Shown here: positions 4,360 to 63,932 of the stretch, in pieces | Layout: every line of letters starts with the position of its first letter | Position numbering within the stretch: the first letter of the stretch is position 1 | DNA from: an uncultured virus (IMG/VR IMGVR_UViG_3300014160_000002) | Taxonomy: Duplodnaviria; Heunggongvirae; Uroviricota; Caudoviricetes | Reading direction: 5' to 3' (one strand) | Length of the DNA: 64,000 bases | Virus record (IMG/VR): IMGVR_UViG_3300014160_000002 | Location: 1-64,000 of that record | Translations under genes and position numbers: made by a program | Notes under the pieces: generated by a model | What the model saw: only the letters and a program-made list of their open reading frames with translations | The model's database searches: none | Told to the model about the DNA's origin: nothing

Positions 4360-4376
4360 GCTATAATACTGAAAAT

Positions 4377-4681
4377 TTTGTGGACCTATAAGCGGAGTTC
4401 TGTGCCTCTTGCGAGGTGACAACCATTCGTCTAGGGCGGCCATTACTGGACGCCTCAAGCTCTCAACCCGAGGGTTATAGCGAACCGAGCAGGTTCATCC
4501 CCTCCTATTCGAGATTGCTCCCCGTGAAGATTGCCCGTTTCACCCGGACTTAACCGGCTCGTCTCTGTTGCTCTAATTGTCGCAGTATTGCTACTGCGCC
4601 GGGGCGTTACCCCGCACGGTGCTCTGTGTAGCTCCGACTTTCCTCTCCCCCTTGCGGGGCAGTAGTTGTCCAGTCCACAAA
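4377..4681 (-). ncRNA. rnpB: RNase P RNA (bacterial type)
   Basis: GAGGAAAGTCGGAGC near the 5' end, ACAGAACTCCGCTTA near the 3' end (P4 with compensatory changes), GGGTGAAACGGGCAATC, GGAGCAA, and P1 TTTGTGGAC/GTCCACAAA. Confidence 0.93.
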
Positions 4682-6838: not shown

Positions 6839-7192
6839 TGGTGGAGGCGACGGGGAGTTGAACCCCGTGTCCGAAAAGTGTCACAACAAGAAGACTACAC
6901 GCTTATCCTGCTTCGTACTGCTCTTTGCCATGACTCTGCTGAAACAGGCATATCAGAACCACGGTGCAAGCCTTCATCTCGCCGGATATCGGCTACATCC
7001 CCGGTCGCAGCCTCTCTATCGGCGCTTGGCCTCTACCCGACAGGCTAAAGCAGAGCAAGCGTGCCTAATCTAGCGATTAAGCAAATGCATATTGCGCTGT
7101 GGCAATTGCGTTGTTAACCCTTGTTACGGGCAGGGTAACCTCCCGGCGTGCCTTCCTGTAATGAGCGCTCCCGTCGAAACCAGAACGCCCCC
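6839..7192 (-). ncRNA. ssrA: tmRNA
   Basis: 5' GGGGGCGTTCTGGTTTCGACGG; 3' GGACACGGGGTTCAACTCCCCGTCGCCTCCACCA; G3:U alanine identity pair; internal tag ORF ATAQYAFA* at 7103-7077. Confidence 0.95.
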
Positions 7193-7417: not shown

Positions 7418-7492
7418 TGGTAGCCCTGCCGGGACTCTAACCCGGTTCCGCTGGTTGAAAGCCAGCCATCCTAAACCATAGACGACAAGGCC
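7418..7492 (-). tRNA. tRNA-Glu(TTC)
   Basis: GCTGG-CTTTCAA-CCAGC; CCA end. Confidence 0.9.
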
Positions 7493-7644
7493 AGAAATTT
7501 GAGGCTGCGAAATATCCACGTTTGGGAGTACAAGGACCGGTAGCAGCCTCGGTTTATCGGTACCCACTACGTGGCTCAGTTTAGACCGCCGTCCTGATAC
7601 GACCACGATTGAAACCTGCGGTCAAGGTGTATCGTGGCCTCGCT

Positions 7645-7719
7645 TGGAGCACCCGGAGAGAATCGAACTCCCGCATAAAGGGTTTGCAGCCCTCTCCCTT
7701 CCCACTTGGGTACGAGTGC
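7645..7719 (-). tRNA. tRNA-Cys(GCA)
   Basis: GAGGG-CTGCAAA-CCCTT; U73; CCA end. Confidence 0.92.
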
Positions 7720-7802
7720 AAATTTGGCTCGCCTACCACTCTCTCAGTGGCTTTGAACCGTGCGGGCAGCTTTCACCGCCGCAGGCTATCTGGCTCGCAA
7801 TG

Positions 7803-7877
7803 TGGAGCACCTGAACGGAATCGAACCGTTGCATAGCTGTTTTGCAGACAGCCGCCTTTCCACTTGGCGACAGGTGC
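7803..7877 (-). tRNA. tRNA-Cys(GCA)
   Basis: GCTGT-CTGCAAA-ACAGC; U73; CCA end. Confidence 0.93.
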
Positions 7878-7878
7878 G

Positions 7879-8112
7879 TTATTCTTCTTCCTCAGCCGAC
7901 TCCTTACTTAGGTCCACCGGCTGGCGAATCTTGGCAATCTTTCTTTCGGTGGATACGGAGAGTCTCACGTACTCCACTCGTGCCCAATGGACGGTGTGAA
8001 CCGCCATCCACCCGACCACCACCCATTTAGAAAAGATGGTGAAAATCCTGTCGGGGTTGATGCTTATAAACCAAAGCACCACGCACATAAACCAATGCCA
8101 CAAAGAAATCAT
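7879..8112 (-). CDS. Small membrane protein inside the tRNA array
   Basis: GGGAGG SD; two hydrophobic segments; acidic tail. Confidence 0.6.
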   Translation of the reverse strand: MISLWHWFMCVVLWFISINPDRIFTIFSKWVVVGWMAVHTVHWARVEYVRLSVSTERKIAKIRQPVDLSKESAEEEE

Positions 8113-8163
8113 CTAGCCTCCCGTCATGCAGTGTGTTCCCCCAAAGCATGGCGGGGGTGAAAC

Positions 8164-8240
8164 TGGTAGCCCCGGTGGGATTCAAACCCACGGTCTCCGC
8201 CTTGAGAGGGCGGCGTCCTTGGTCGCTAGACGACGAGGCC
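8164..8240 (-). tRNA. tRNA-Glu(CTC)
   Basis: CCGCC-CTCTCAA-GGCGG; CCA end. Confidence 0.92.
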
Positions 8241-8311
8241 ATGTCTTAGCAGGGCACGACTGGCTACGATGAGTTTATGTCAGCGGGAAGCCTGATTCTG
8301 TGCCCTAAGTT

Positions 8312-8387
8312 TGGTGGACGGGAAGGGAGTTGAACCCTCAGTCTCTCGGGTGCGAGCCGAGCGCTTTCCCAGTTAAGCTACCTGCCC
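8312..8387 (-). tRNA. tRNA-Ala(CGC)
   Basis: CTCGG-CTCGCAC-CCGAG; G3:U70. Confidence 0.92.
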
Positions 8388-8523
8388 AAATGCAATCGTG
8401 GAGGGAATCGAACCCTCTCTCCTGTTGCAGCCTGCAAGCCGCTACAGTTCTTCCCCCCGTTACTTCCAAAGCCAGACAGCCTTCGGTCTTGCAGGACCTA
8501 TTGCCATCTCGGGGGCTGAAACT

Positions 8524-8599
8524 TGGTGCGCCGAGCAGGACTCGAACCTGCGACCTCTTCCGTGTCAGGGAAGCGCTCTAACCACTGAGCTACCAGCGC
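8524..8599 (-). tRNA. tRNA-Val(GAC)
   Basis: CTTCC-CTGACAC-GGAAG; CCA end. Confidence 0.95.
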
Positions 8600-8701
8600 A
8601 AACGCATGGATTTCCCTACGGTCGCCTAGACCCCGTCTGTTTATGTACTGCTTTGCGGGGCACTGCTACTGGTTAGCTCGCTACTAGGGCCATGCGTAAA
8701 A

Positions 8702-8779
8702 TGGCGGTCCATACGGGATTTGAACCCGTGGTCTTCTCCGTGACAGGGAGACGAGGACTCCAGACTCCTCCAATAGACC
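8702..8779 (-). tRNA. tRNA-Asp(GTC)
   Basis: TCTCC-CTGTCAC-GGAGA; G73; CCA end. Confidence 0.92.
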
Positions 8780-8785
8780 GAAACT

Positions 8786-8863
8786 TGGCGGTGAGTACGG
8801 GATTTGAACCCGTGTTTCTACCGTGACAGGGTAGTGTCTTAGGCCGGGCTAGACCAACCCACC
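8786..8863 (-). tRNA. tRNA-Asp(GTC)
   Basis: CTACC-CTGTCAC-GGTAG; G73; CCA end. Confidence 0.92.
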
Positions 8864-8955
8864 GTAATCGGACCCTATTAACCCGCTCATGGGCGGAGGC
8901 TTTCGCCGGGGCGGCACATAGCACAAATACTATCCCGTTCGTATGCCGCTAAACT

Positions 8956-9030
8956 TGGTGGACCTAAAGGGAATCGGACCCTTGACCTCTCGGCTGCCGA
9001 CCGAGCGCTCTCCCGCTGAGCTACAGGCCC
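8956..9030 (-). tRNA. tRNA-Ala(GGC)
   Basis: CTCGG-TCGGCAG-CCGAG (C33); G3:U70. Confidence 0.88.
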
Positions 9031-9192
9031 ACAAAAATTCGGGACAACCGGCTGGTTAGGCTAGTCATCCGCAGGTTCTACTGCTCGGGGTCCCTTTTCA
9101 GGGGAACCACCACAGTCCCCCTTACTGAGGGACCCTGCTGGTAGAACCTCGCCACTCGTCAGCTTCGACAGCCCTTAGAGTGACTACAATCT

Positions 9193-9266
9193 TGGAGCGG
9201 GTGACGGGACTCGAACCCGTCTCTACAGCTTGGAAGGCTGCGGCACAACCTCTATACCACACCCGC
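9193..9266 (-). tRNA. tRNA-Gly(TCC)
   Basis: GCAGC-CTTCCAA-GCTGT; U73; CCA end. Confidence 0.92.
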
Positions 9267-9357
9267 AAATCTTGTGAGGACATTGACGCAGCCCCCTGTT
9301 TACGTTGACCGGCGTGTCAGAGCCGGTGTCCTGCCGCTGGACCTCAGCGGACTTACT

Positions 9358-9431
9358 TGGTGGAGCTACGGGGATTTGAACCCCGATTCCTTGCGTGCAA
9401 GGCAAGTGTCCTGCCGTTAGACGATAGTCCC
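9358..9431 (-). tRNA. tRNA-Ala(TGC)
   Basis: CTTGC-CTTGCAC-GCAAG; G3:U70. Confidence 0.9.
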
Positions 9432-9436
9432 AAACT

Positions 9437-9511
9437 TGGAGCGGGCGGTGGGGTTCGGACCCACGACCTCTTCCTTGGCAAGGAAGCATTCTACCACTGA
9501 ACTACGCCCGC
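9437..9511 (-). tRNA. tRNA-Gly(GCC)
   Basis: CTTCC-TTGCCAA-GGAAG; U73; CCA end. Confidence 0.92.
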
Positions 9512-9583
9512 AAACCGCCAAGTAGGTTCTTAACCAATATGCATCGGGTCTTGGACCGTTCCTGCATTACCCTTGGCGAAATA

Positions 9584-9662
9584 TGGTGCGCCGTGAAGGA
9601 ATTGGACCTTCGACCTCTCGCTTGTGGAGCGAGCGCTCTAAACCGGGCTGAGCTAACAGCGC
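9584..9662 (-). tRNA. tRNA-Val(CAC)
   Basis: CTCGC-TCCACAA-GCGAG (C33); CCA end. Confidence 0.88.
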
Positions 9663-9670
9663 ATCGAACT

Positions 9671-9745
9671 TGGTACCCACTGAGAGAATCGAACTCCCGA
9701 CATCCTCCTTGTAAGAGAGGCGGTCTTCCACTGGCCTAAGCGGGC
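9671..9745 (-). tRNA. tRNA-Val(TAC)
   Basis: CCTCT-CTTACAA-GGAGG; CCA end. Confidence 0.92.
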
Positions 9746-9757
9746 AAATCTTGTACT

Positions 9758-9789
9758 AAAAACAAAAAAGGCGGCTTTTCAGCCGCCTT
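9758..9789 (-). terminator. Intrinsic terminator (attenuator) just upstream of tRNA array 1
   Basis: AAGGCGGCT-GAAA-AGCCGCCTT followed by TTTTGTTTTT. Confidence 0.9.
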
Positions 9790-9811
9790 CGGGGGTCCTT
9801 GCTTGGATTTT

Positions 9812-9913
9812 CTATCCAAGCCCTCCCGAAGGCGAGGTATCGCCTCCCTCACACACTGCGGCGACCGCTTCTATCAAGTCAACCGGGTTTGTGATGGCCG
9901 TTTTCATGTTCAT
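9812..9913 (-). CDS. Putative attenuator leader peptide 1 (MNMKTAITNPVDLIEAVAAVCEGGDTSPSGGLG)
   Basis: 33-codon ORF between promoter and terminator; codons 11-25 match the anticodons of the downstream tRNA array. Confidence 0.75.
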   Translation of the reverse strand: MNMKTAITNPVDLIEAVAAVCEGGDTSPSGGLG

Positions 9914-9917
9914 CTCG

Positions 9918-9954
9918 CTTCTATATAATACTGTCGGTAGTTCAAAAACTTCAA
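9918..9954 (-). promoter_or_regulatory. Promoter of tRNA array 1
   Basis: TTGAAG-N18-TATTAT; ACTACCGACAGTATTATATAGAAG nearly duplicates the sequence at 62202-62225. Confidence 0.7.
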
Positions 9955-9965
9955 AAATTTGCGAT

Positions 9966-10124
9966 AGACTTGACGGCGGCTCACTTGCGGGCGTGCAACC
10001 AAAGCTGCCTTGGTCTCCCGGTTGGCTCCGGTCTCACATTCTTATCTGCGAGTCTCCCCTACCAAGTTCCCTTGGCTTCATCCGGGGTATCTTCGGCCCC
10101 GACTACGGAGCCTCCGTCAAGTCT
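9966..10124 (-). ncRNA. Candidate multi-branch ncRNA (~160 nt) with its own extended -10 promoter
   Basis: Terminal stem AGACTTGACGG(A)GGCTC/GAGCC(G)CCGTCAAGTCT enclosing five hairpins; TGGTATAAT at about 10134-10142. Confidence 0.65.
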
Positions 10125-10148
10125 CTCACTTACATTATACCACGAAAT

Positions 10149-10460
10149 TCAGGATTTTGAGGAAAAAAGTTTTCCTTCCTTCGCCCGGATGACATGCTCT
10201 CGGAGGTCATTCACCCTGTAGACCCCATACATCCACAAAACACCTTGAATAAACCCTATCCACCGATTGACCTTAGCCTCATCATAATGCTCGGCTTTAG
10301 TGCCGTTGGCGTAGTTGAACATCTCCTCCACCATCCACGCAGCGTGACGGGCCTGCTCGATACCGGGGTGAGGGCTTTTCGGCTCACCCTCAAGCCGTTG
10401 GGGCAATATCCACAATCGTTGGAACTCGCTCCGGTAGAACTCTAACAATTGGTATTCCAC
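10149..10460 (-). CDS. Hypothetical phage protein
   Basis: 103 aa with KVNRWIGFIQGVL, a pattern typical of small phage proteins. Confidence 0.65.
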   Translation of the reverse strand: MEYQLLEFYRSEFQRLWILPQRLEGEPKSPHPGIEQARHAAWMVEEMFNYANGTKAEHYDEAKVNRWIGFIQGVLWMYGVYRVNDLREHVIRAKEGKLFSSKS

Positions 10461-54835: not shown

Positions 54836-55768
54836 ATGTTCATTTATCTTATCGTTAATCACGAGACCGGCAAATACTATGTCGGTCAGCACAAAGGAAG
54901 CAATCTTAAGAAGTATCTTCAACAGAAGTTTCACCATGCTCAGAGGGGAATTTCCGAACGGTCCCATCTTTACAATTCAATGCGAGCGCACCCAGACCCC
55001 AAGGTCTGGTCTATTCATGCTCTCCGGTCGGATATCCAGACCCGAGAAGAACTTGATGAGACCGAGCGGGACTTCATCAAATTTCTTAGGGCAACTGACC
55101 CTGAATATGGCTACAACATCTGCCGGGGAGGGGAAGGGTTTACCGGACCGCATTCTGCCGAAACCCGTAGGAAAATATCCAAAGCTGGCAGAAAATGGGC
55201 ATTGGACCCGGCTAATGAAGAAGCTAAAAAGCTTCGTATAATGCGGTTACATGAAGCAAGAAAGAAGCATAAACGCCCCTCTGAGAATAAAGTTTGCCCG
55301 GTATGTCATACTCCATTCTCTGTTCCATTTGGTTGGAAAAATAGGATATATTGCTCACGATTTTGTTCTCTTCAACGATTAAGAACCACTGAATTTGAAC
55401 AAGAACGATTGAACAGTCTTCGACAATCCCTTAAACTACCCAAGTCTCGTATTAATATGTCTACGGCTCAAGCTGTTAGACGAAAAGCGGAAAGAGAACG
55501 GGGAGTGAAACCCACCCCGCATATTTGGACTCAACAGGAACGAATCATACAAGCAGAACGAATGCGGTCCGTTGGTCATAAAAATAAAGGACGTACTTTA
55601 TCGGACTTTCATAAACATACTATTTCTAATGCATTAAAAGGGTTAATGCGTGATGAAAAACGGAAAAACTCTCTCGATAAAGGCAGACACACTCGTTGGC
55701 ATTCCTCACGAGGAGTTGTTAGTAAAGACTGCCGATTTTGTTTGGAGGGACTTTCCAAGCCTAATTAG
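54836..55768 (+). CDS. GIY-YIG homing endonuclease with NUMOD3-like DNA-binding segments
   Basis: MFIYLIVNHETGKYYVGQ, GYNICRGGEG, HSAETRRKIS; AT-richer than its flanks. Confidence 0.9.
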   Translation: MFIYLIVNHETGKYYVGQHKGSNLKKYLQQKFHHAQRGISERSHLYNSMRAHPDPKVWSIHALRSDIQTREELDETERDFIKFLRATDPEYGYNICRGGEGFTGPHSAETRRKISKAGRKWALDPANEEAKKLRIMRLHEARKKHKRPSENKVCPVCHTPFSVPFGWKNRIYCSRFCSLQRLRTTEFEQERLNSLRQSLKLPKSRINMSTAQAVRRKAERERGVKPTPHIWTQQERIIQAERMRSVGHKNKGRTLSDFHKHTISNALKGLMRDEKRKNSLDKGRHTRWHSSRGVVSKDCRFCLEGLSKPN

Positions 55769-61175: not shown

Positions 61176-61904
61176 ATGCCCACCTTTAACTTTAAGTCGT
61201 CCTTTTTGAAGAAACCCGCCGCCTTGGCTCGTCGCCCGGATTACATGTCAACCTCTGAACCGAAGGAAGCTACTGGATTGGGGTTTGGTGACCCGCAATC
61301 GGATAAACAGCGGCTCATGGAAGAGGTATCCCGGTACAAGGCACTTTTGGCTAAGACAAAAGACATTCAGGAATCAAAAGATTTAGCATTCAAGCTCTCA
61401 TTGGCTGAGGCAAAGTTGAAATTGCTGAACCAGAAACAGGCCGCTGCTGGGTCCGCCCCGAGGGAGTATCCGGTAAAGAAAGACAAAGAGGGATTCTGGT
61501 ACGTCATGGGCCTGCCCGGCGAGGAGCTTTCCGAGGGAATGAAGGATGCTCCCGTGGTCCCCACCCCCAACACGTGGCTGAACGTCCACAACGAAGTCAA
61601 GGGGCTGGAACTGGCGGAGCAGCTTTATCGAGAGCTTTACGCCACATTTCAGACCAACGACAACCTTCGGGAGGGCGATGTATTCAGCACCCCCGTGGGC
61701 AAGTTTATCTGTCAGGGAGTGGATGTTCTTCCCTATGACGAACCGGCCAAACGCATCATTGGCGAGGTGGATGACAGCTACAAATGTGGCAACTGCGACT
61801 GTGACCAAGGGGAGCACCGGAAGAAGTTCGATGATAACGGCTATCCCTATTACGGCGAATGCACCCAGCACCCGGAGTGTAAGGAATATGTGAAGCGAGG
61901 ATAA
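61176..61904 (+). CDS. Hypothetical protein with C-terminal Cys/His cluster
   Basis: GAGGAG SD; CGNCDC...H...C...C. Confidence 0.65.
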   Translation: MPTFNFKSSFLKKPAALARRPDYMSTSEPKEATGLGFGDPQSDKQRLMEEVSRYKALLAKTKDIQESKDLAFKLSLAEAKLKLLNQKQAAAGSAPREYPVKKDKEGFWYVMGLPGEELSEGMKDAPVVPTPNTWLNVHNEVKGLELAEQLYRELYATFQTNDNLREGDVFSTPVGKFICQGVDVLPYDEPAKRIIGEVDDSYKCGNCDCDQGEHRKKFDDNGYPYYGECTQHPECKEYVKRG

Positions 61905-61951
61905 TCTCCGCTAAATCGTCCATGCGTGGTATACTGTAAGTGGGGGGTACT

Positions 61952-62188
61952 ATGGACGACCTGACGAAAAAGTTGAAGGAAGAGTCTGAGAAACTTGCGG
62001 AAGAATACTTCCGTCACCCTAGCCCCATGGATTATATGGTGGTTAACAGCATTTTGGTGCGGGGATTTATCATGGGATGCAACCATGCCAAGGGAATTTT
62101 TTACCCGAAACCACCCGCTTCCGTGCCGGTTGAGGGGACCTTGGAAAAGGCTTTGTCGGCTTTTTGCGATGCTTGGGAAAAGAAATAA
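61952..62188 (+). CDS. Hypothetical protein
   Basis: TGGTATACT box and GGGGGG SD upstream. Confidence 0.55.
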   Translation: MDDLTKKLKEESEKLAEEYFRHPSPMDYMVVNSILVRGFIMGCNHAKGIFYPKPPASVPVEGTLEKALSAFCDAWEKK

Positions 62189-62189
62189 C

Positions 62190-62225
62190 TGCAAAAAACC
62201 GACTACCGGTGGTATTATATAGAAG
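62190..62225 (+). promoter_or_regulatory. Promoter of tRNA array 2
   Basis: ACTACCGGTGGTATTATATAGAAG, near-copy of the array 1 promoter. Confidence 0.7.
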
Positions 62226-62411
62226 GAGGGAGCTACGGCTCTACTCCTAACCGGGAACCTGCTTGTCCCCGAAAAATGGCTGGTCTTAAAAGGGCCTCCC
62301 GTTAGGTTAGACCCCGAAGCGGACTCGGACAAGGTCCCGGCGAATTACAGCAGATATACCCATCCGGGGTGGACGCTAGGCGACCGCCCCGGACATTCAA
62401 AGAGAAGCGCA

Positions 62412-62486
62412 ATGTTGACTATCACCATGCCGCACACACAAACGCAAACTACGATTAGTTCAGGCGGCGGAGCCTGCTTGGCATAA
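62412..62486 (+). CDS. Putative attenuator leader peptide 2 (MLTITMPHTQTQTTISSGGGACLA)
   Basis: 24-codon Thr/Ile/Gln-rich ORF overlapping the antiterminator arm. Confidence 0.7.
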   Translation: MLTITMPHTQTQTTISSGGGACLA

Positions 62487-62509
62487 CAAAGACCAAGCCG
62501 AGACTCAGC

Positions 62510-62538
62510 AGCCGCCCAAAAGGCGGCTTTCGTGTTTT
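62510..62538 (+). terminator. Intrinsic terminator (attenuator) upstream of tRNA array 2
   Basis: AGCCGCC-CAAAA-GGCGGCT followed by TTCGTGTTTT. Confidence 0.75.
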
Positions 62539-62552
62539 ATGGGGGTTTTTTG

Positions 62553-62915
62553 ATGGCGAAGTTTGAACAGCATTGCACGGACTGTCAAATCATCCTCGGC
62601 AAGAAGTATGAGGATGTCAACCGGTGGGTCGATGGGTTGTTTTGGAAGTTCGGTCCCCGGCACCGCAGGATGCGCCACAACCTGCATGGTGTGAGAGAGG
62701 CGCAGAAGTTGTTCGGCCCGGATGGAGCGAAAGCGGCTATTGTTCACATCGTCCGGGATATGGGAAAGGTTCCGCATGAGCGGGATTACGATAGGGTCCC
62801 CGAGGGAGTGGAAATCTTCCCCGGCTTCTGTGACCCACCGCTTGGATTTGTGCAGCACTTTGCGTTGTTCCGTGCCGCCGCCGAAGCGGAGATAGAGCGA
62901 ATCTTAGGCGGGTAG
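62553..62915 (+). CDS. Hypothetical His-rich phage protein (HRRMRH...H motif)
   Basis: EQHC, WVD, HRRMRHN, HIVRD; stop codon overlaps the 5' end of tRNA-Ile. Confidence 0.7.
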   Translation: MAKFEQHCTDCQIILGKKYEDVNRWVDGLFWKFGPRHRRMRHNLHGVREAQKLFGPDGAKAAIVHIVRDMGKVPHERDYDRVPEGVEIFPGFCDPPLGFVQHFALFRAAAEAEIERILGG

Positions 62916-62981
62916 CTCAGCGATACGAGCAATCGGCTGATAACCGATAGGTCGAGGGTTTGACTCCCTCTCCGCCTACCA
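62906..62981 (+). tRNA. tRNA-Ile(GAT)
   Basis: ATCGG-CTGATAA-CCGAT; A73; CCA end. Confidence 0.92.
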
Positions 62982-63036
62982 TTTTGATACGGTGTACCGC
63001 ATAGATAGGGTTTATGCGGTCAGCCGTATAAGTCAT

Positions 63037-63111
63037 GGCACCGTCGTCCAGCGGCTAGGACCTCCGCCCGATTAGCGGAAGACCCCGGTTCGAGTCCGAG
63101 CGGGGCTACCA
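63037..63111 (+). tRNA. Atypical tRNA with GAT anticodon on a Glu-like body
   Basis: D arm GTCC-AGCGGCTA-GGAC, TCCGC-CCGATTA-GCGGA, T loop TTCGAGT, CCA end. Confidence 0.7.
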
Positions 63112-63314
63112 TTTGAATGCCTGTTGACCGGGAGTTTTCCGGCTCAATGCAGCAGGTCCCGAGTGGGTTCATGATTCGTGCAAAGGCAGGTCATGGATTC
63201 CGGGAACCGGGGAGACCCGAGAAACCTGTTACCTTGTTCCTTGCCGGGCATTCATCAGTTAGCTCATCCACCAAGTGTGGAAAGAGTTGGGACCGTCCTC
63301 GTGATGGTCCTTAT

Positions 63315-63390
63315 GCTACTGTAGCTCAATTGGCGGAGCGCCGGTCTCGTACACCGGAGGTTGCAGGTTCGACGCCTGTCAGTAGCTCCA
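63315..63390 (+). tRNA. tRNA-Thr(CGT)
   Basis: CCGGT-CTCGTAC-ACCGG; CCA end. Confidence 0.93.
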
Positions 63391-63450
63391 AGTTTTAGGT
63401 ATCGTATAATGGACCTTATCTCGGATAACGTCCATTATATTGAACCTTAA

Positions 63451-63526
63451 GCTGCCGTGGCGCAGTTGGTAGCGCACCTGCTTGGTAAGCAGGGGGTCGG
63501 GAGTTCGAGCCTCCCCGGTAGCTCCA
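63451..63526 (+). tRNA. tRNA-Thr(GGT)
   Basis: CCTGC-TTGGTAA-GCAGG; CCA end. Confidence 0.93.
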
Positions 63527-63532
63527 TTTTAA

Positions 63533-63607
63533 GCCGCAGTAGGCCAGTGGTAGACGGCATCCTTGGTAAGGATGAGGACGTGGGTTCGATTCCCACTTGC
63601 GGCTCCA
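63533..63607 (+). tRNA. tRNA-Thr(GGT)
   Basis: CATCC-TTGGTAA-GGATG; CCA end. Confidence 0.9.
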
Positions 63608-63611
63608 GTTT

Positions 63612-63693
63612 GCTACCGTGGCACAGCGGCGACTGCACCTGCCTTGTAAGCAGGCATATCACAACGGGGGTTCGAGTCCCTTCGGTAGCTCCA
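63612..63693 (+). tRNA. tRNA-Thr(TGT) with enlarged variable loop
   Basis: CCTGC-CTTGTAA-GCAGG; CCA end. Confidence 0.88.
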
Positions 63694-63735
63694 GTTTCCA
63701 AACGCACAGTTTTTGATGCGTTTGATGAATATCAT

Positions 63736-63810
63736 TCCAGAGTCGTCTAACGGTCGGACATGCGGCTTTGAACCGCAGAATGAGAGGTTCGATTCCTCCC
63801 TCTGGAACCA
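63736..63810 (+). tRNA. tRNA-Gln(TTG)
   Basis: TGCGG-CTTTGAA-CCGCA; CCA end. Confidence 0.9.
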
Positions 63811-63816
63811 AGTTAT

Positions 63817-63890
63817 TCCGGGGTCGTCTAATGTTAGGATAGGTGGTTTTGACCCATCAGATAGGGGTTAGAGTCCTCTCCCCGGAGCCA
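63817..63890 (+). tRNA. tRNA-Gln(TTG)
   Basis: GGTGG-TTTTGAC-CCATC; CCA end. Confidence 0.85.
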
Positions 63891-63932
63891 AGAAATCTCC
63901 CATCGTGAGTATCTAATGGTGTGGAGGTTCAC

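Follow-up and report, generated by a model that had tools for sequence, protein, structure and literature searches.

The stretch of DNA analysed here, referred to as the window, comprises bases 1-64000 (64,000 nucleotides) of a 75,409-bp record of an uncultured tailed virus (IMG/VR IMGVR_UViG_3300014160_000002) that is estimated to be 24% complete. The proteins it encodes (tail, replication, nucleotide metabolism) are as in large tailed phages, and it carries 23 tRNA genes, a tmRNA and an RNase P RNA (ARAGORN; Rfam). Our subject is a leader unit that lies ahead of one of its tRNA arrays, A2, a set of Ile, Thr and Gln tRNA genes, together with the counterparts of this unit ahead of other arrays. 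Exact-pattern scans of viral contigs identified a near-identical relative of 316,945 bp (G001, 99% complete), whose tRNAs (60 by ARAGORN, 62 Rfam model matches) are all confined to four regions. Two of these arrays are those of the window, A1 and A2, and the remaining two are called A3 and A4 here. All four are headed by a promoter, a short open reading frame (ORF) whose codons match the tRNAs behind it, and a GC hairpin with a T-run, and the promoters of A3 and A4 are of the same type as those of A1 and A2. Judging from these sequences, we consider it probable that transcription into every tRNA array of this huge phage is controlled by a ribosome-mediated (leader-peptide) attenuator at its head.

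The A2 unit begins with the promoter word ACTACCG-nnn-GTATTATATAGAAG, which spans 62202-62225. The word ACTACCGNNNGTATTATATAGAAG has exactly two copies in the window, one here on the plus strand and one at 9918-9941 on the minus strand ahead of leader 1, the leader of A1 (0 matches in 100 shuffles), and it is present ahead of A1- and A2-type arrays at 9/9 viral loci. A scan with the sigma-70 consensus returned no -35 element at the A2 promoter. A structured untranslated region follows (Table 1), and a GC-rich hairpin about 15-20 nt 5' of the leader ATG is retained in relatives. The leader ORF reads ATG TTG ACT ATC ACC ATG CCG CAC ACA CAA ACG CAA ACT ACG ATT AGT TCA GGC GGC GGA GCC TGC TTG GCA TAA. 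A preliminary description of this DNA had pointed to its six Thr codons, which use all four ACN codons, to Ile ATC and ATT and to two Gln CAA codons, and had named the Ile, Thr and Gln tRNAs downstream; the sequence is as stated, and ARAGORN confirmed the tRNAs. The features it had listed as shared with leader 1, namely the promoter word, an AGAAGCG word, a hairpin at the stop codon and a GGCGGC/GCCGCC terminator stem, were all found in the sequence, and the layout of the stop-codon hairpin is the same in all four G001 leaders.

A first correction to that description is that a DUF6915-like ORF separates the A2 terminator from the first tRNA. This ORF matches Pfam PF21866 with E=8.5e-6 and 26.3 bits, slightly below the cut-off of 27, and the clusters matched in a protein-atlas search were all either DUF6915 or hypothetical, which gives no clue to function. 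It sits between terminator and tRNAs and therefore lies within the putatively attenuated unit, and in all relatives found it occupies the same place between the A2-type attenuator and the Ile/Thr/Gln tRNAs. Rfam searches of 61900-62950 and 9700-10250 at E<=10 gave no family that explains the leader, the 187-nt region or the RNA upstream of leader 1; the sub-threshold matches (P9 sRNA, E=5.8; sraL, 21.5 bits against a gathering score of 39) are at chance level. Likewise, 62190-62930 had no blastn match among GenBank phages, and tblastn with the ribonucleotide reductase returned matches only in unrelated small phages, with <60% identity.

Contigs, not reads, of four wetland metatranscriptome runs were placed on 61900-63900. 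The discrete RNA 5' end that they define (Table 1) lies 6-12 nt past the start expected from the -10 element. A contig of run X1 extends from this end through the terminator and the DUF6915 ORF to 63723, inside the tRNAs, and a contig of X4 covers 62241-62508 only. The segment 62093-62235 is uncovered in 4/4 runs, which is not evidence by itself, nor is the X4 end at 62508. As a weak hint, from contigs only, the A2 promoter appears to be in use, and read-through past the A2 terminator occurs.

Table 1. Leader units and tRNA arrays of the window phage, with the leaders of phage Tunturi_5; positions are those of the window unless another sequence is named.
Feature	Position	Strand	Details
A2 promoter	62202-62221	+	ACTACCG box 62202-62208; extended -10: TG 62210-62211, TATTAT 62213-62218 / TATATA 62216-62221
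Structured 5' untranslated region, ~187 nt	62226-62411	+	before leader ORF; covered by RNA contigs
Discrete RNA 5' end	62236	+	contigs of X1 and X2, from two studies, start here right behind Illumina adapter letters
Leader ORF A2	62412-62486	+	24 codons + stop, MLTITMPHTQTQTTISSGGGACLA; in frame in 7 distinct versions
A2 test-codon zone, codons 3-15	62418-62456	+	Thr ACT, ACC, ACA, ACG, ACT, ACG; Ile ATC, ATT; Gln CAA x2
A2 antiterminator 5' strand (predicted)	62463-62468	+	GGCGGC, leader codons 18-19; partner 62511-62516
A2 stop-codon hairpin	62476-62498	+	GCTTGG (62476-62481) / CCAAGC (62493-62498); TAA 62484-62486 in loop; nested within antiterminator
A2 intrinsic terminator	62510-62539	+	AGCCGCC-CAAAA-GGCGGCT + TTTCGTGTTTT; consensus scan match at 62510-62528
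DUF6915-like ORF, 123 aa	62544-62915	+	between terminator and tRNAs; end overlaps first tRNA by 10 nt
tRNA array A2	62906-63890	+	Ile-GAT x2, Thr-CGT, Thr-GGT x2, Thr-TGT, Gln-TTG x2 (ARAGORN)
Leader 1 promoter	9918-9954	-	TTGAAG-18-TATTAT, with the shared ACTACCG...GAAG word
Leader ORF 1	9812-9913	-	33 codons + stop, MNMKTAITNPVDLIEAVAAVCEGGDTSPSGGLG; test zone codons 11-25 (9839-9883)
Leader 1 antiterminator (predicted by folding)	9785-9833	-	GCCTTCGGG (9825-9833) : CCCGAAGGC (9785-9793), around stop-codon hairpin 9801-9821
Leader 1 intrinsic terminator	9762-9790	-	GAAGGCGGC-TGAAAA-GCCGCCTTT + T-run; consensus scan match 9790-9767
tRNA array A1	7418-9745	-	Val TAC/CAC/GAC, Gly GCC/TCC, Ala TGC/GGC/CGC, Asp GTC x2, Glu CTC/TTC, Cys GCA x2 (ARAGORN)
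A3 (G001)			leader peptide MKNLSSNSLSSLSYSSSLLSGLVLPDGWDG; Tyr-GTA; Leu-TAA/GAG/CAG/TAG/GAG/CAA; Ser-GCT/TGA/GGA
A4 (G001)			leader peptide MRNRKPNPMQWQPKRHFSRPSFGGLPFAP; His; Arg x3; Asn; Lys x4; Phe x2; Met x3; Pro x4; Gln-CTG x2; Trp x2; further on Arg-TCT/CCT
TA (Tunturi_5)	L086 2157-2255		leader peptide MKTLCLSSYCLSSSLSLS...; Leu x4, Cys, Tyr, Ser x3; leader without annotation
TB (Tunturi_5)	L086 10223-10336		leader peptide MQHVSTFRFAVPATAGNPAGQQGTNA...; Gln x2, Gly-GCC, Thr x3, Pro x4, His, Ala x3, Phe; leader without annotation
TC (Tunturi_5)	L086 22574-22723; PP885688.1 251573-251722		leader peptide MKQILKQLGHDFDIRGKRGVVVDTWDITIRGERKW...; Trp, Asp, Met, Lys, Val, Arg, Glu, Ile, Gly-TCC; leader annotated as gp308, 'hypothetical protein'

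Codon match between leaders and tRNA arrays

We allotted every sense codon to the array whose tRNAs read it and took the expectation from 60 long ORFs. In G001, the codons of the own array make up 17/32 codons of leader A1 (expected 10.9, P=0.02; these 17 are the GNN or Cys codons), 10/23 of A2 (expected 3.1, P=4e-4), 18/29 of A3 (expected 5.6, P=6e-7) and 22/28 of A4 (expected 9.2, P=1e-6), the product of the four binomials being 5e-18. The 4x4 table of leaders by arrays gives a chi-square of 79 (P=2e-13), and the true pairing of leaders and arrays tops the 24 permutations with a score of 67 versus 50 for the next. The bias belongs to the reading frame, with own-class shares of.53,.43,.62 and.79 in frame (A1-A4) versus.05-.33 in the two other frames, and 5% in the other two frames of the A2 leader DNA. 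When all 1231 ATG ORFs of 20-40 codons in the six frames of G001 are ranked by class bias, the four leaders take places 1, 2, 10 and 279.

The match between leaders and arrays is at the level of single codons. With standard wobble, every anticodon of an array is sampled by its own leader (13/13, 5/5, 9/9 and 16/16 for A1-A4; 43/43 in total), a coverage that random phage-gene windows of the same length attained 117, 999, 129 and 0 times per 20,000 draws. The Gln codon is CAA in leader 2, whose array holds Gln-UUG, and CAG in leader 4, whose array holds Gln-CUG.

Comparison of distinct leader versions from relatives (seven A2-type, four A1-type, two A3-type and two A4-type) shows that reading frame and stop codon are retained in all of them. 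Five candidate loci, L028 and L036 (2/13) and L057-L059 (3/7), were chance pattern matches in unrelated long ORFs without tRNAs, and were dropped. The A2-type versions with enough downstream DNA are followed by the DUF6915 ORF and then by Thr and Gln(UUG) tRNAs, and by Ile tRNAs too except in G004. In the columns 62436-62454 of the seven A2 versions, 48/49 codons specify Thr, Gln or Ile, even though Thr and Gln trade places and synonymous codons vary. Further on, at codons 18-23 (GGC GGC GGA GCC TGC ...), 18/19 positions are invariant in the seven versions, third positions included. The class-kept 5' codons and the invariant 3' nucleotides therefore indicate that selection preserves codon class towards the 5' end of the ORF and RNA sequence towards its 3' end.

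This division bears on a prediction of the preliminary description, which had expected tRNAs for the unmatched leader codons (Met, Pro, His, Ser, Leu) beyond 64000. None are there: the array ends at 63890, ARAGORN found no further tRNA up to the record end at 75409, and those tRNAs lie in other arrays with leaders of their own. An array without the predicted isotypes tells only against the assumption that every leader codon must be matched, and the unmatched 3' leader codons are the invariant RNA strand of the proposed switch. Further copies ahead of other arrays do exist, A3 and A4 of G001 each lying behind such a leader.

The hairpins are likewise conserved. Besides the A2 and A1 terminators, the consensus scan also picked out one in L013, the A3 locus of G001. 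The A2 stop-codon hairpin and terminator taken together are 97.8% paired, with three pairs changed on both sides (slid controls 19-54%); the terminator alone is 100% paired in seven versions, with two pairs altered on both sides, and the stop-codon hairpin has a compensatory U-A to C-G change in relatives. In A1-type terminators, the distal stem is swapped wholesale with full compensation (GGCGCTC/GAGCGCC, GGCACCTA/TAGGTGCC). In the closest two lineages (L004/L027 compared with window 9671-9745), nearly identical leaders precede tRNA genes that diverge strongly, and in part also in their order, so that conservation is stronger in the leader than in the genes behind it. Searches with the proteins neighbouring the A3 and A4 arrays returned identical copies only, and a metagenome scan with the DUF6915 alignment gave three loci and no lineage beyond those already found.

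A more distant phage, Tunturiibacter phage Tunturi_5 (PP885688.1, 308,711 bp), has 45.7% identity in the baseplate wedge protein (tblastn). It is a cultured jumbo phage whose host is Tunturiibacter psychrotolerans, of the Acidobacteriota. Its tRNAs lie in three arrays of a composition unlike that of the window phage, each behind a short ORF and a hairpin with a T-run (TA, TB and TC, Table 1). Own-array codons make up 14/31, 22/36 and 33/48 of these leaders (P 4-8e-4 each; 3x3 chi-square P=1e-8), and the leaders cover 8/9, 13/14 and 15/15 anticodons, 36/38 in total. The case of Cys is instructive: in Tunturi_5 the tRNA-Cys belongs to the Leu/Tyr/Ser array, whose leader has two TGC codons, and in the window phage it belongs to the GNN array, with TGT in leader 1 and no Cys codon in leader 3. 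The Tunturi_5 leaders, as read from their sequences, follow the tRNA partition of Tunturi_5 itself and form an independent replicate. The idea that one device had been retuned to different tRNA sets is thus borne out by the four G001 arrays, by the class-kept relatives and by the Tunturi_5 partition. The paper describing Tunturi_5 counts 43 tRNA genes, and the words 'leader' and 'attenuat' are absent from it.

A still more distant 485-kb uncultured phage, LR745208.1, carries ten small tRNA clusters between 141.8 and 201 kb (L088-L091). At six of them there is a TTGACA/TATACT promoter together with a short ORF that matches the cluster; the ORF starts with 'MN' in five cases, for example MNQHLHHHCY ahead of Tyr/Cys/His, and the own cluster is the best-scoring column for five of the six.

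Folding of the leader transcripts and a proposed switch

Transcripts were folded truncated just before the 3' arm of the terminator, that is, at the moment of choice, and a ribosome footprint from P-12 to P+14 was modelled on them. In all four G001 and all three Tunturi_5 leaders, the 5' arm of the terminator is then paired upstream, inside the 3' third of the ORF. For A2, the pairing of GGCGGC with GCCGCC had been proposed in the preliminary description; the coordinates given there were right, and it is the minimum free energy pairing of the truncated transcript (P=0.84). The predicted antiterminators enclose the stop-codon hairpin and consist of GCCTTCGGG:CCCGAAGGC in A1, GGCGGC:GCCGCC in A2, GCCTCGT:ACGAGGC plus TTGCCCGA:TCGGGTAA in A3 and TCGGTGGG:CCCACCGA in A4.

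Without a ribosome, the antiterminator pairs with P 0.80-0.99 in all seven leaders. The pairing is about equally high with the footprint on codons 1-23 (A1), 1-15 (A2), 1-16 (A3) or 1-19 (A4), and for A2 it is 0.72-0.85 with the footprint on the test zone; the matched codons lie in the footprint zones that leave the antiterminator paired. With the footprint on the last third of the ORF, the probability drops to 0.2-0.6. Slow decoding of the test codons should therefore give read-through, and fast decoding the terminator.

In the mechanism that we propose, a host-type promoter would initiate an RNA carrying the short leader ORF, the 5' two-thirds of which would act as a test strip with at least one codon per downstream tRNA species. 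The 3' third of the ORF, with the stop-codon hairpin, would form the 5' strand of an antiterminator whose helix sequesters the 5' arm of the terminator. Where ternary complexes are scarce, the ribosome would be slowed on the test codons and the antiterminator would persist, so that RNA polymerase would continue into the tRNA genes (in A2, into the DUF6915 gene first). Quick decoding would let the ribosome unwind the antiterminator strand, upon which the terminator would form and the array would stay untranscribed. In this way, ample decoding capacity would hold back tRNA synthesis, a negative feedback set individually for every codon group. We infer that the leaders are translated, that stalling leads to read-through and that the signal is tRNA supply; the phage probably makes each tRNA set only when ribosomes run short of that set.

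Weighing of the readings

Of the features of the attenuator class, a conserved short ORF, cognate codons and an intrinsic terminator before the regulated genes were found; an antiterminator sharing a strand with the terminator is predicted, by folding only, in all seven leaders and responds to the modelled footprint. Several observations weigh against the attenuator reading. Folded at full length to equilibrium, the A1, A2 and A4 transcripts prefer the terminator at any ribosome position (P about 0.85-0.99), and the argument for a switch is therefore co-transcriptional (kinetic); in classical attenuators, the terminator fold is likewise favoured at full-length equilibrium. Such folding with a modelled ribosome gave a clear switch for A3 only, which is why the truncated transcripts were used. 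A ribosome placed exactly at the stop codon leaves the antiterminator strand of A2-A4 uncovered (P returns to 0.84-0.99), so that blocking would have to be steric. Shine-Dalgarno-like words are weak before leaders 1-3 (GAGAAG-type). The antiterminator helices are nearly invariant (A2, 41/42 cells paired across seven versions; A1, nine pairs with 36/36 cells paired in four versions, eight of them invariant and one changing from U-A to U-G), and covariation therefore neither supports nor contradicts the pairing. Leader 1 is only weakly enriched at the class level (P=0.02-0.035; rank 279 of 1231), because GNN codons are common. ARAGORN finds no Ile tRNA in the A2-type array of G004, though the leader retains Ile codons, and the A3 array of lineage 2 is without Leu-TAA and Ser-TGA, though its leader retains TTA and TCA. 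The depth of the RNA contigs is flat and levels are unreadable, so that they yield no attenuation ratio. Finally, 4/10 clusters of LR745208.1 are without a convincing leader, and hairpins but no clean T-run terminators were seen there; the mechanism in that phage may differ from that of the window phage.

The codon-matched, translated leader could also act on the processing or stability of the precursor RNA, on Rho-dependent polarity or on translation of the next ORF, or it could act with the opposite sign. We hold this to be unlikely. It would suit LR745208.1, where the matched leaders end 6-50 nt before the first tRNA and hairpins occur with no clear T-run, as well as the dominance of the terminator fold at equilibrium in 3/4 G001 leaders and the DUF6915 ORF directly after the A2 terminator. 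Yet all four G001 and all three Tunturi_5 leaders have a GC hairpin with a T-run, the 5' arm of which has a conserved alternative partner in the ORF, and 3/4 G001 arrays have no ORF behind the terminator.

Less likely still, the leaders would be classical amino-acid sensors that report tRNA charging upon host starvation, with the tRNAs as co-regulated cargo. Known leader-peptide attenuators (the trp, his, thr and ilv operons) do respond to charged-tRNA levels, and stalling cannot tell a missing tRNA from an uncharged one. However, the match is at the level of isoacceptors and codons (CAA versus CAG, six Leu codons, four Thr codons) and tracks the tRNA partition between phages, Cys included; up to nine or ten amino acids are sampled at once, a poor signal for any single one, and extra tRNA would be no relief for amino-acid starvation. 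That the short ORFs are functional micropeptides, or chance ORFs between a promoter and an insulating terminator, is highly improbable in spite of their conserved C-terminal parts (GGGAC..., CEGGDTSPSGG...) and of the abundance of such ORFs (1231 of 20-40 codons in G001), given that the codon match is frame-specific and has a joint probability of about 5e-18, that the 3' parts are conserved as nucleotides including third positions, as expected for RNA pairing, that the variable part shuffles the order of the peptide and retains codon class, and that seven leaders in two distant phages track seven different tRNA sets.

Taken as attenuators, the phage leaders resemble the enterobacterial amino-acid leaders in having a short leader, here predicted to be translated, that is enriched in product-related codons, a terminator 5' arm with an alternative partner such that the ribosome position picks the fold (here likewise predicted), and a terminator that is thermodynamically favoured while the choice is kinetic. 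The thr leader is rich in Thr and Ile, and those of ilvGMEDA and ilvBN in Leu, Val and Ile; trpL, hisL, leuL and pheL are further examples. The targets there are biosynthetic enzymes, whereas here they are tRNA genes, and one to three amino acids are sampled there, as against every anticodon of the array here (5-16 species, up to about ten amino acids). In addition, the stop codon lies here in a hairpin nested within the antiterminator, the predicted default in the absence of translation is read-through instead of super-attenuation, and the element is phage-borne. None of the Rfam leader families (Thr, His, Leu, Trp etc.) was found at the gathering score in the window, or at E<=10 at either leader. 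The pheST leader (pheM) is similar in that leader-peptide attenuation acts on a gene of the translation apparatus and decoding capacity feeds back, but it controls a synthetase through Phe alone, in contrast to tRNA genes and many codons here. T-box riboswitches also report the state of a specific tRNA through a choice between terminator and antiterminator and control translation-related genes; a T-box works without a ribosome, its specifier codon and T-box sequence binding one uncharged tRNA directly, unlike the many ORF codons here, and the T-box model had no match in the window (gathering score) or at either leader (Rfam, E<=10).

A full-text literature search, which left subscription-only papers outside its reach, found no account of tRNA genes or arrays being controlled by a leader peptide, and we know of no tRNA genes, cellular or viral, that have been shown to be under leader-peptide attenuation. 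The best reading of the sequences would thus be a previously undescribed variant, namely trp-type attenuation applied to tRNA genes.

Why phages carry tRNA genes is a long-standing question, the usual answers being static codon usage and, lately, evasion of tRNA-cleaving defences. If each leader samples every codon of its array, tRNA supply would be measured and corrected in real time for each codon group, and the decoding machinery itself would be governed by the logic of the trp operon. Going further, and only tentatively, we suggest that huge phages might run a modular 'tRNA on demand' homeostat, in which the code is split among a few tRNA regulons, each with a codon-sampling leader, and that this might be a widespread and so far undescribed level at which viruses control counter-defence and their takeover of translation. 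Under such a scheme, the phage would detect limiting host tRNAs and switch on the matching array, whether the limitation came from host shut-off, from codon-usage mismatch or from defensive anticodon nucleases of the host, and the device would span the acidobacterial jumbo phage Tunturi_5 and the 485-kb uncultured phage. Attenuation by the leaders lends itself to direct testing: Tunturi_5 and Tunturiibacter psychrotolerans are a cultured phage-host pair in which the phage has three leaders of this kind, and the leader units are short enough to be studied by coupled transcription-translation in vitro, in a defined system with a chosen set of tRNAs. They could also serve as compact programmable sensors of specific tRNA availability.

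Neighbouring RNAs and genes

Structured RNAs were also noticed upstream of other leaders. The segment 9955-10160 of the window (minus strand) contains a second promoter-like word, TGGTATAATGTAAGTGAG at ~10150, and behind it a structured RNA of ~160 nt, which CTTGACGG...CCGTCAAG closes; this RNA adjoins the leader-1 promoter on its upstream side and has no Rfam match at E<=10. Another structured RNA, of ~240 nt, lies directly upstream of the A3 promoter, together with a promoter word and a strong terminator of its own (L013 1555-1886; G001 ~80054-80385), and is a candidate for a small RNA gene. Three GC hairpins, each with a tetraloop and a trailing ACCA, are found in the 5' untranslated region of the A4 leader (L014 ~1960-2045; G001 ~107960-108045); they look like tRNA acceptor-end minihelices.

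The RNase P RNA (4373-4681, 191 bits) and the tmRNA (6839-7192, 124 bits), both on the minus strand, lie 3' of array A1 on the same strand, and a tRNA-Gly-CCC (2686-2762) comes after them, downstream of A1. All three may be part of the putatively attenuated transcription unit of A1. A homing-endonuclease-like ORF (PHROG 314) is found in the structural region of the window (54836-55768, plus strand), and an ORF with a CxxC/HNH-like motif lies within array A3, between tRNA-Tyr and the Leu tRNAs (L013 2305-2772, minus strand). Arrays A3 and A4 also contain tRNA-like genes with irregular anticodon loops, given as '???' by ARAGORN (L013 3165-3235; L014 4780-4853), and genes of this kind occur in Tunturi_5 and LR745208.1 as well.

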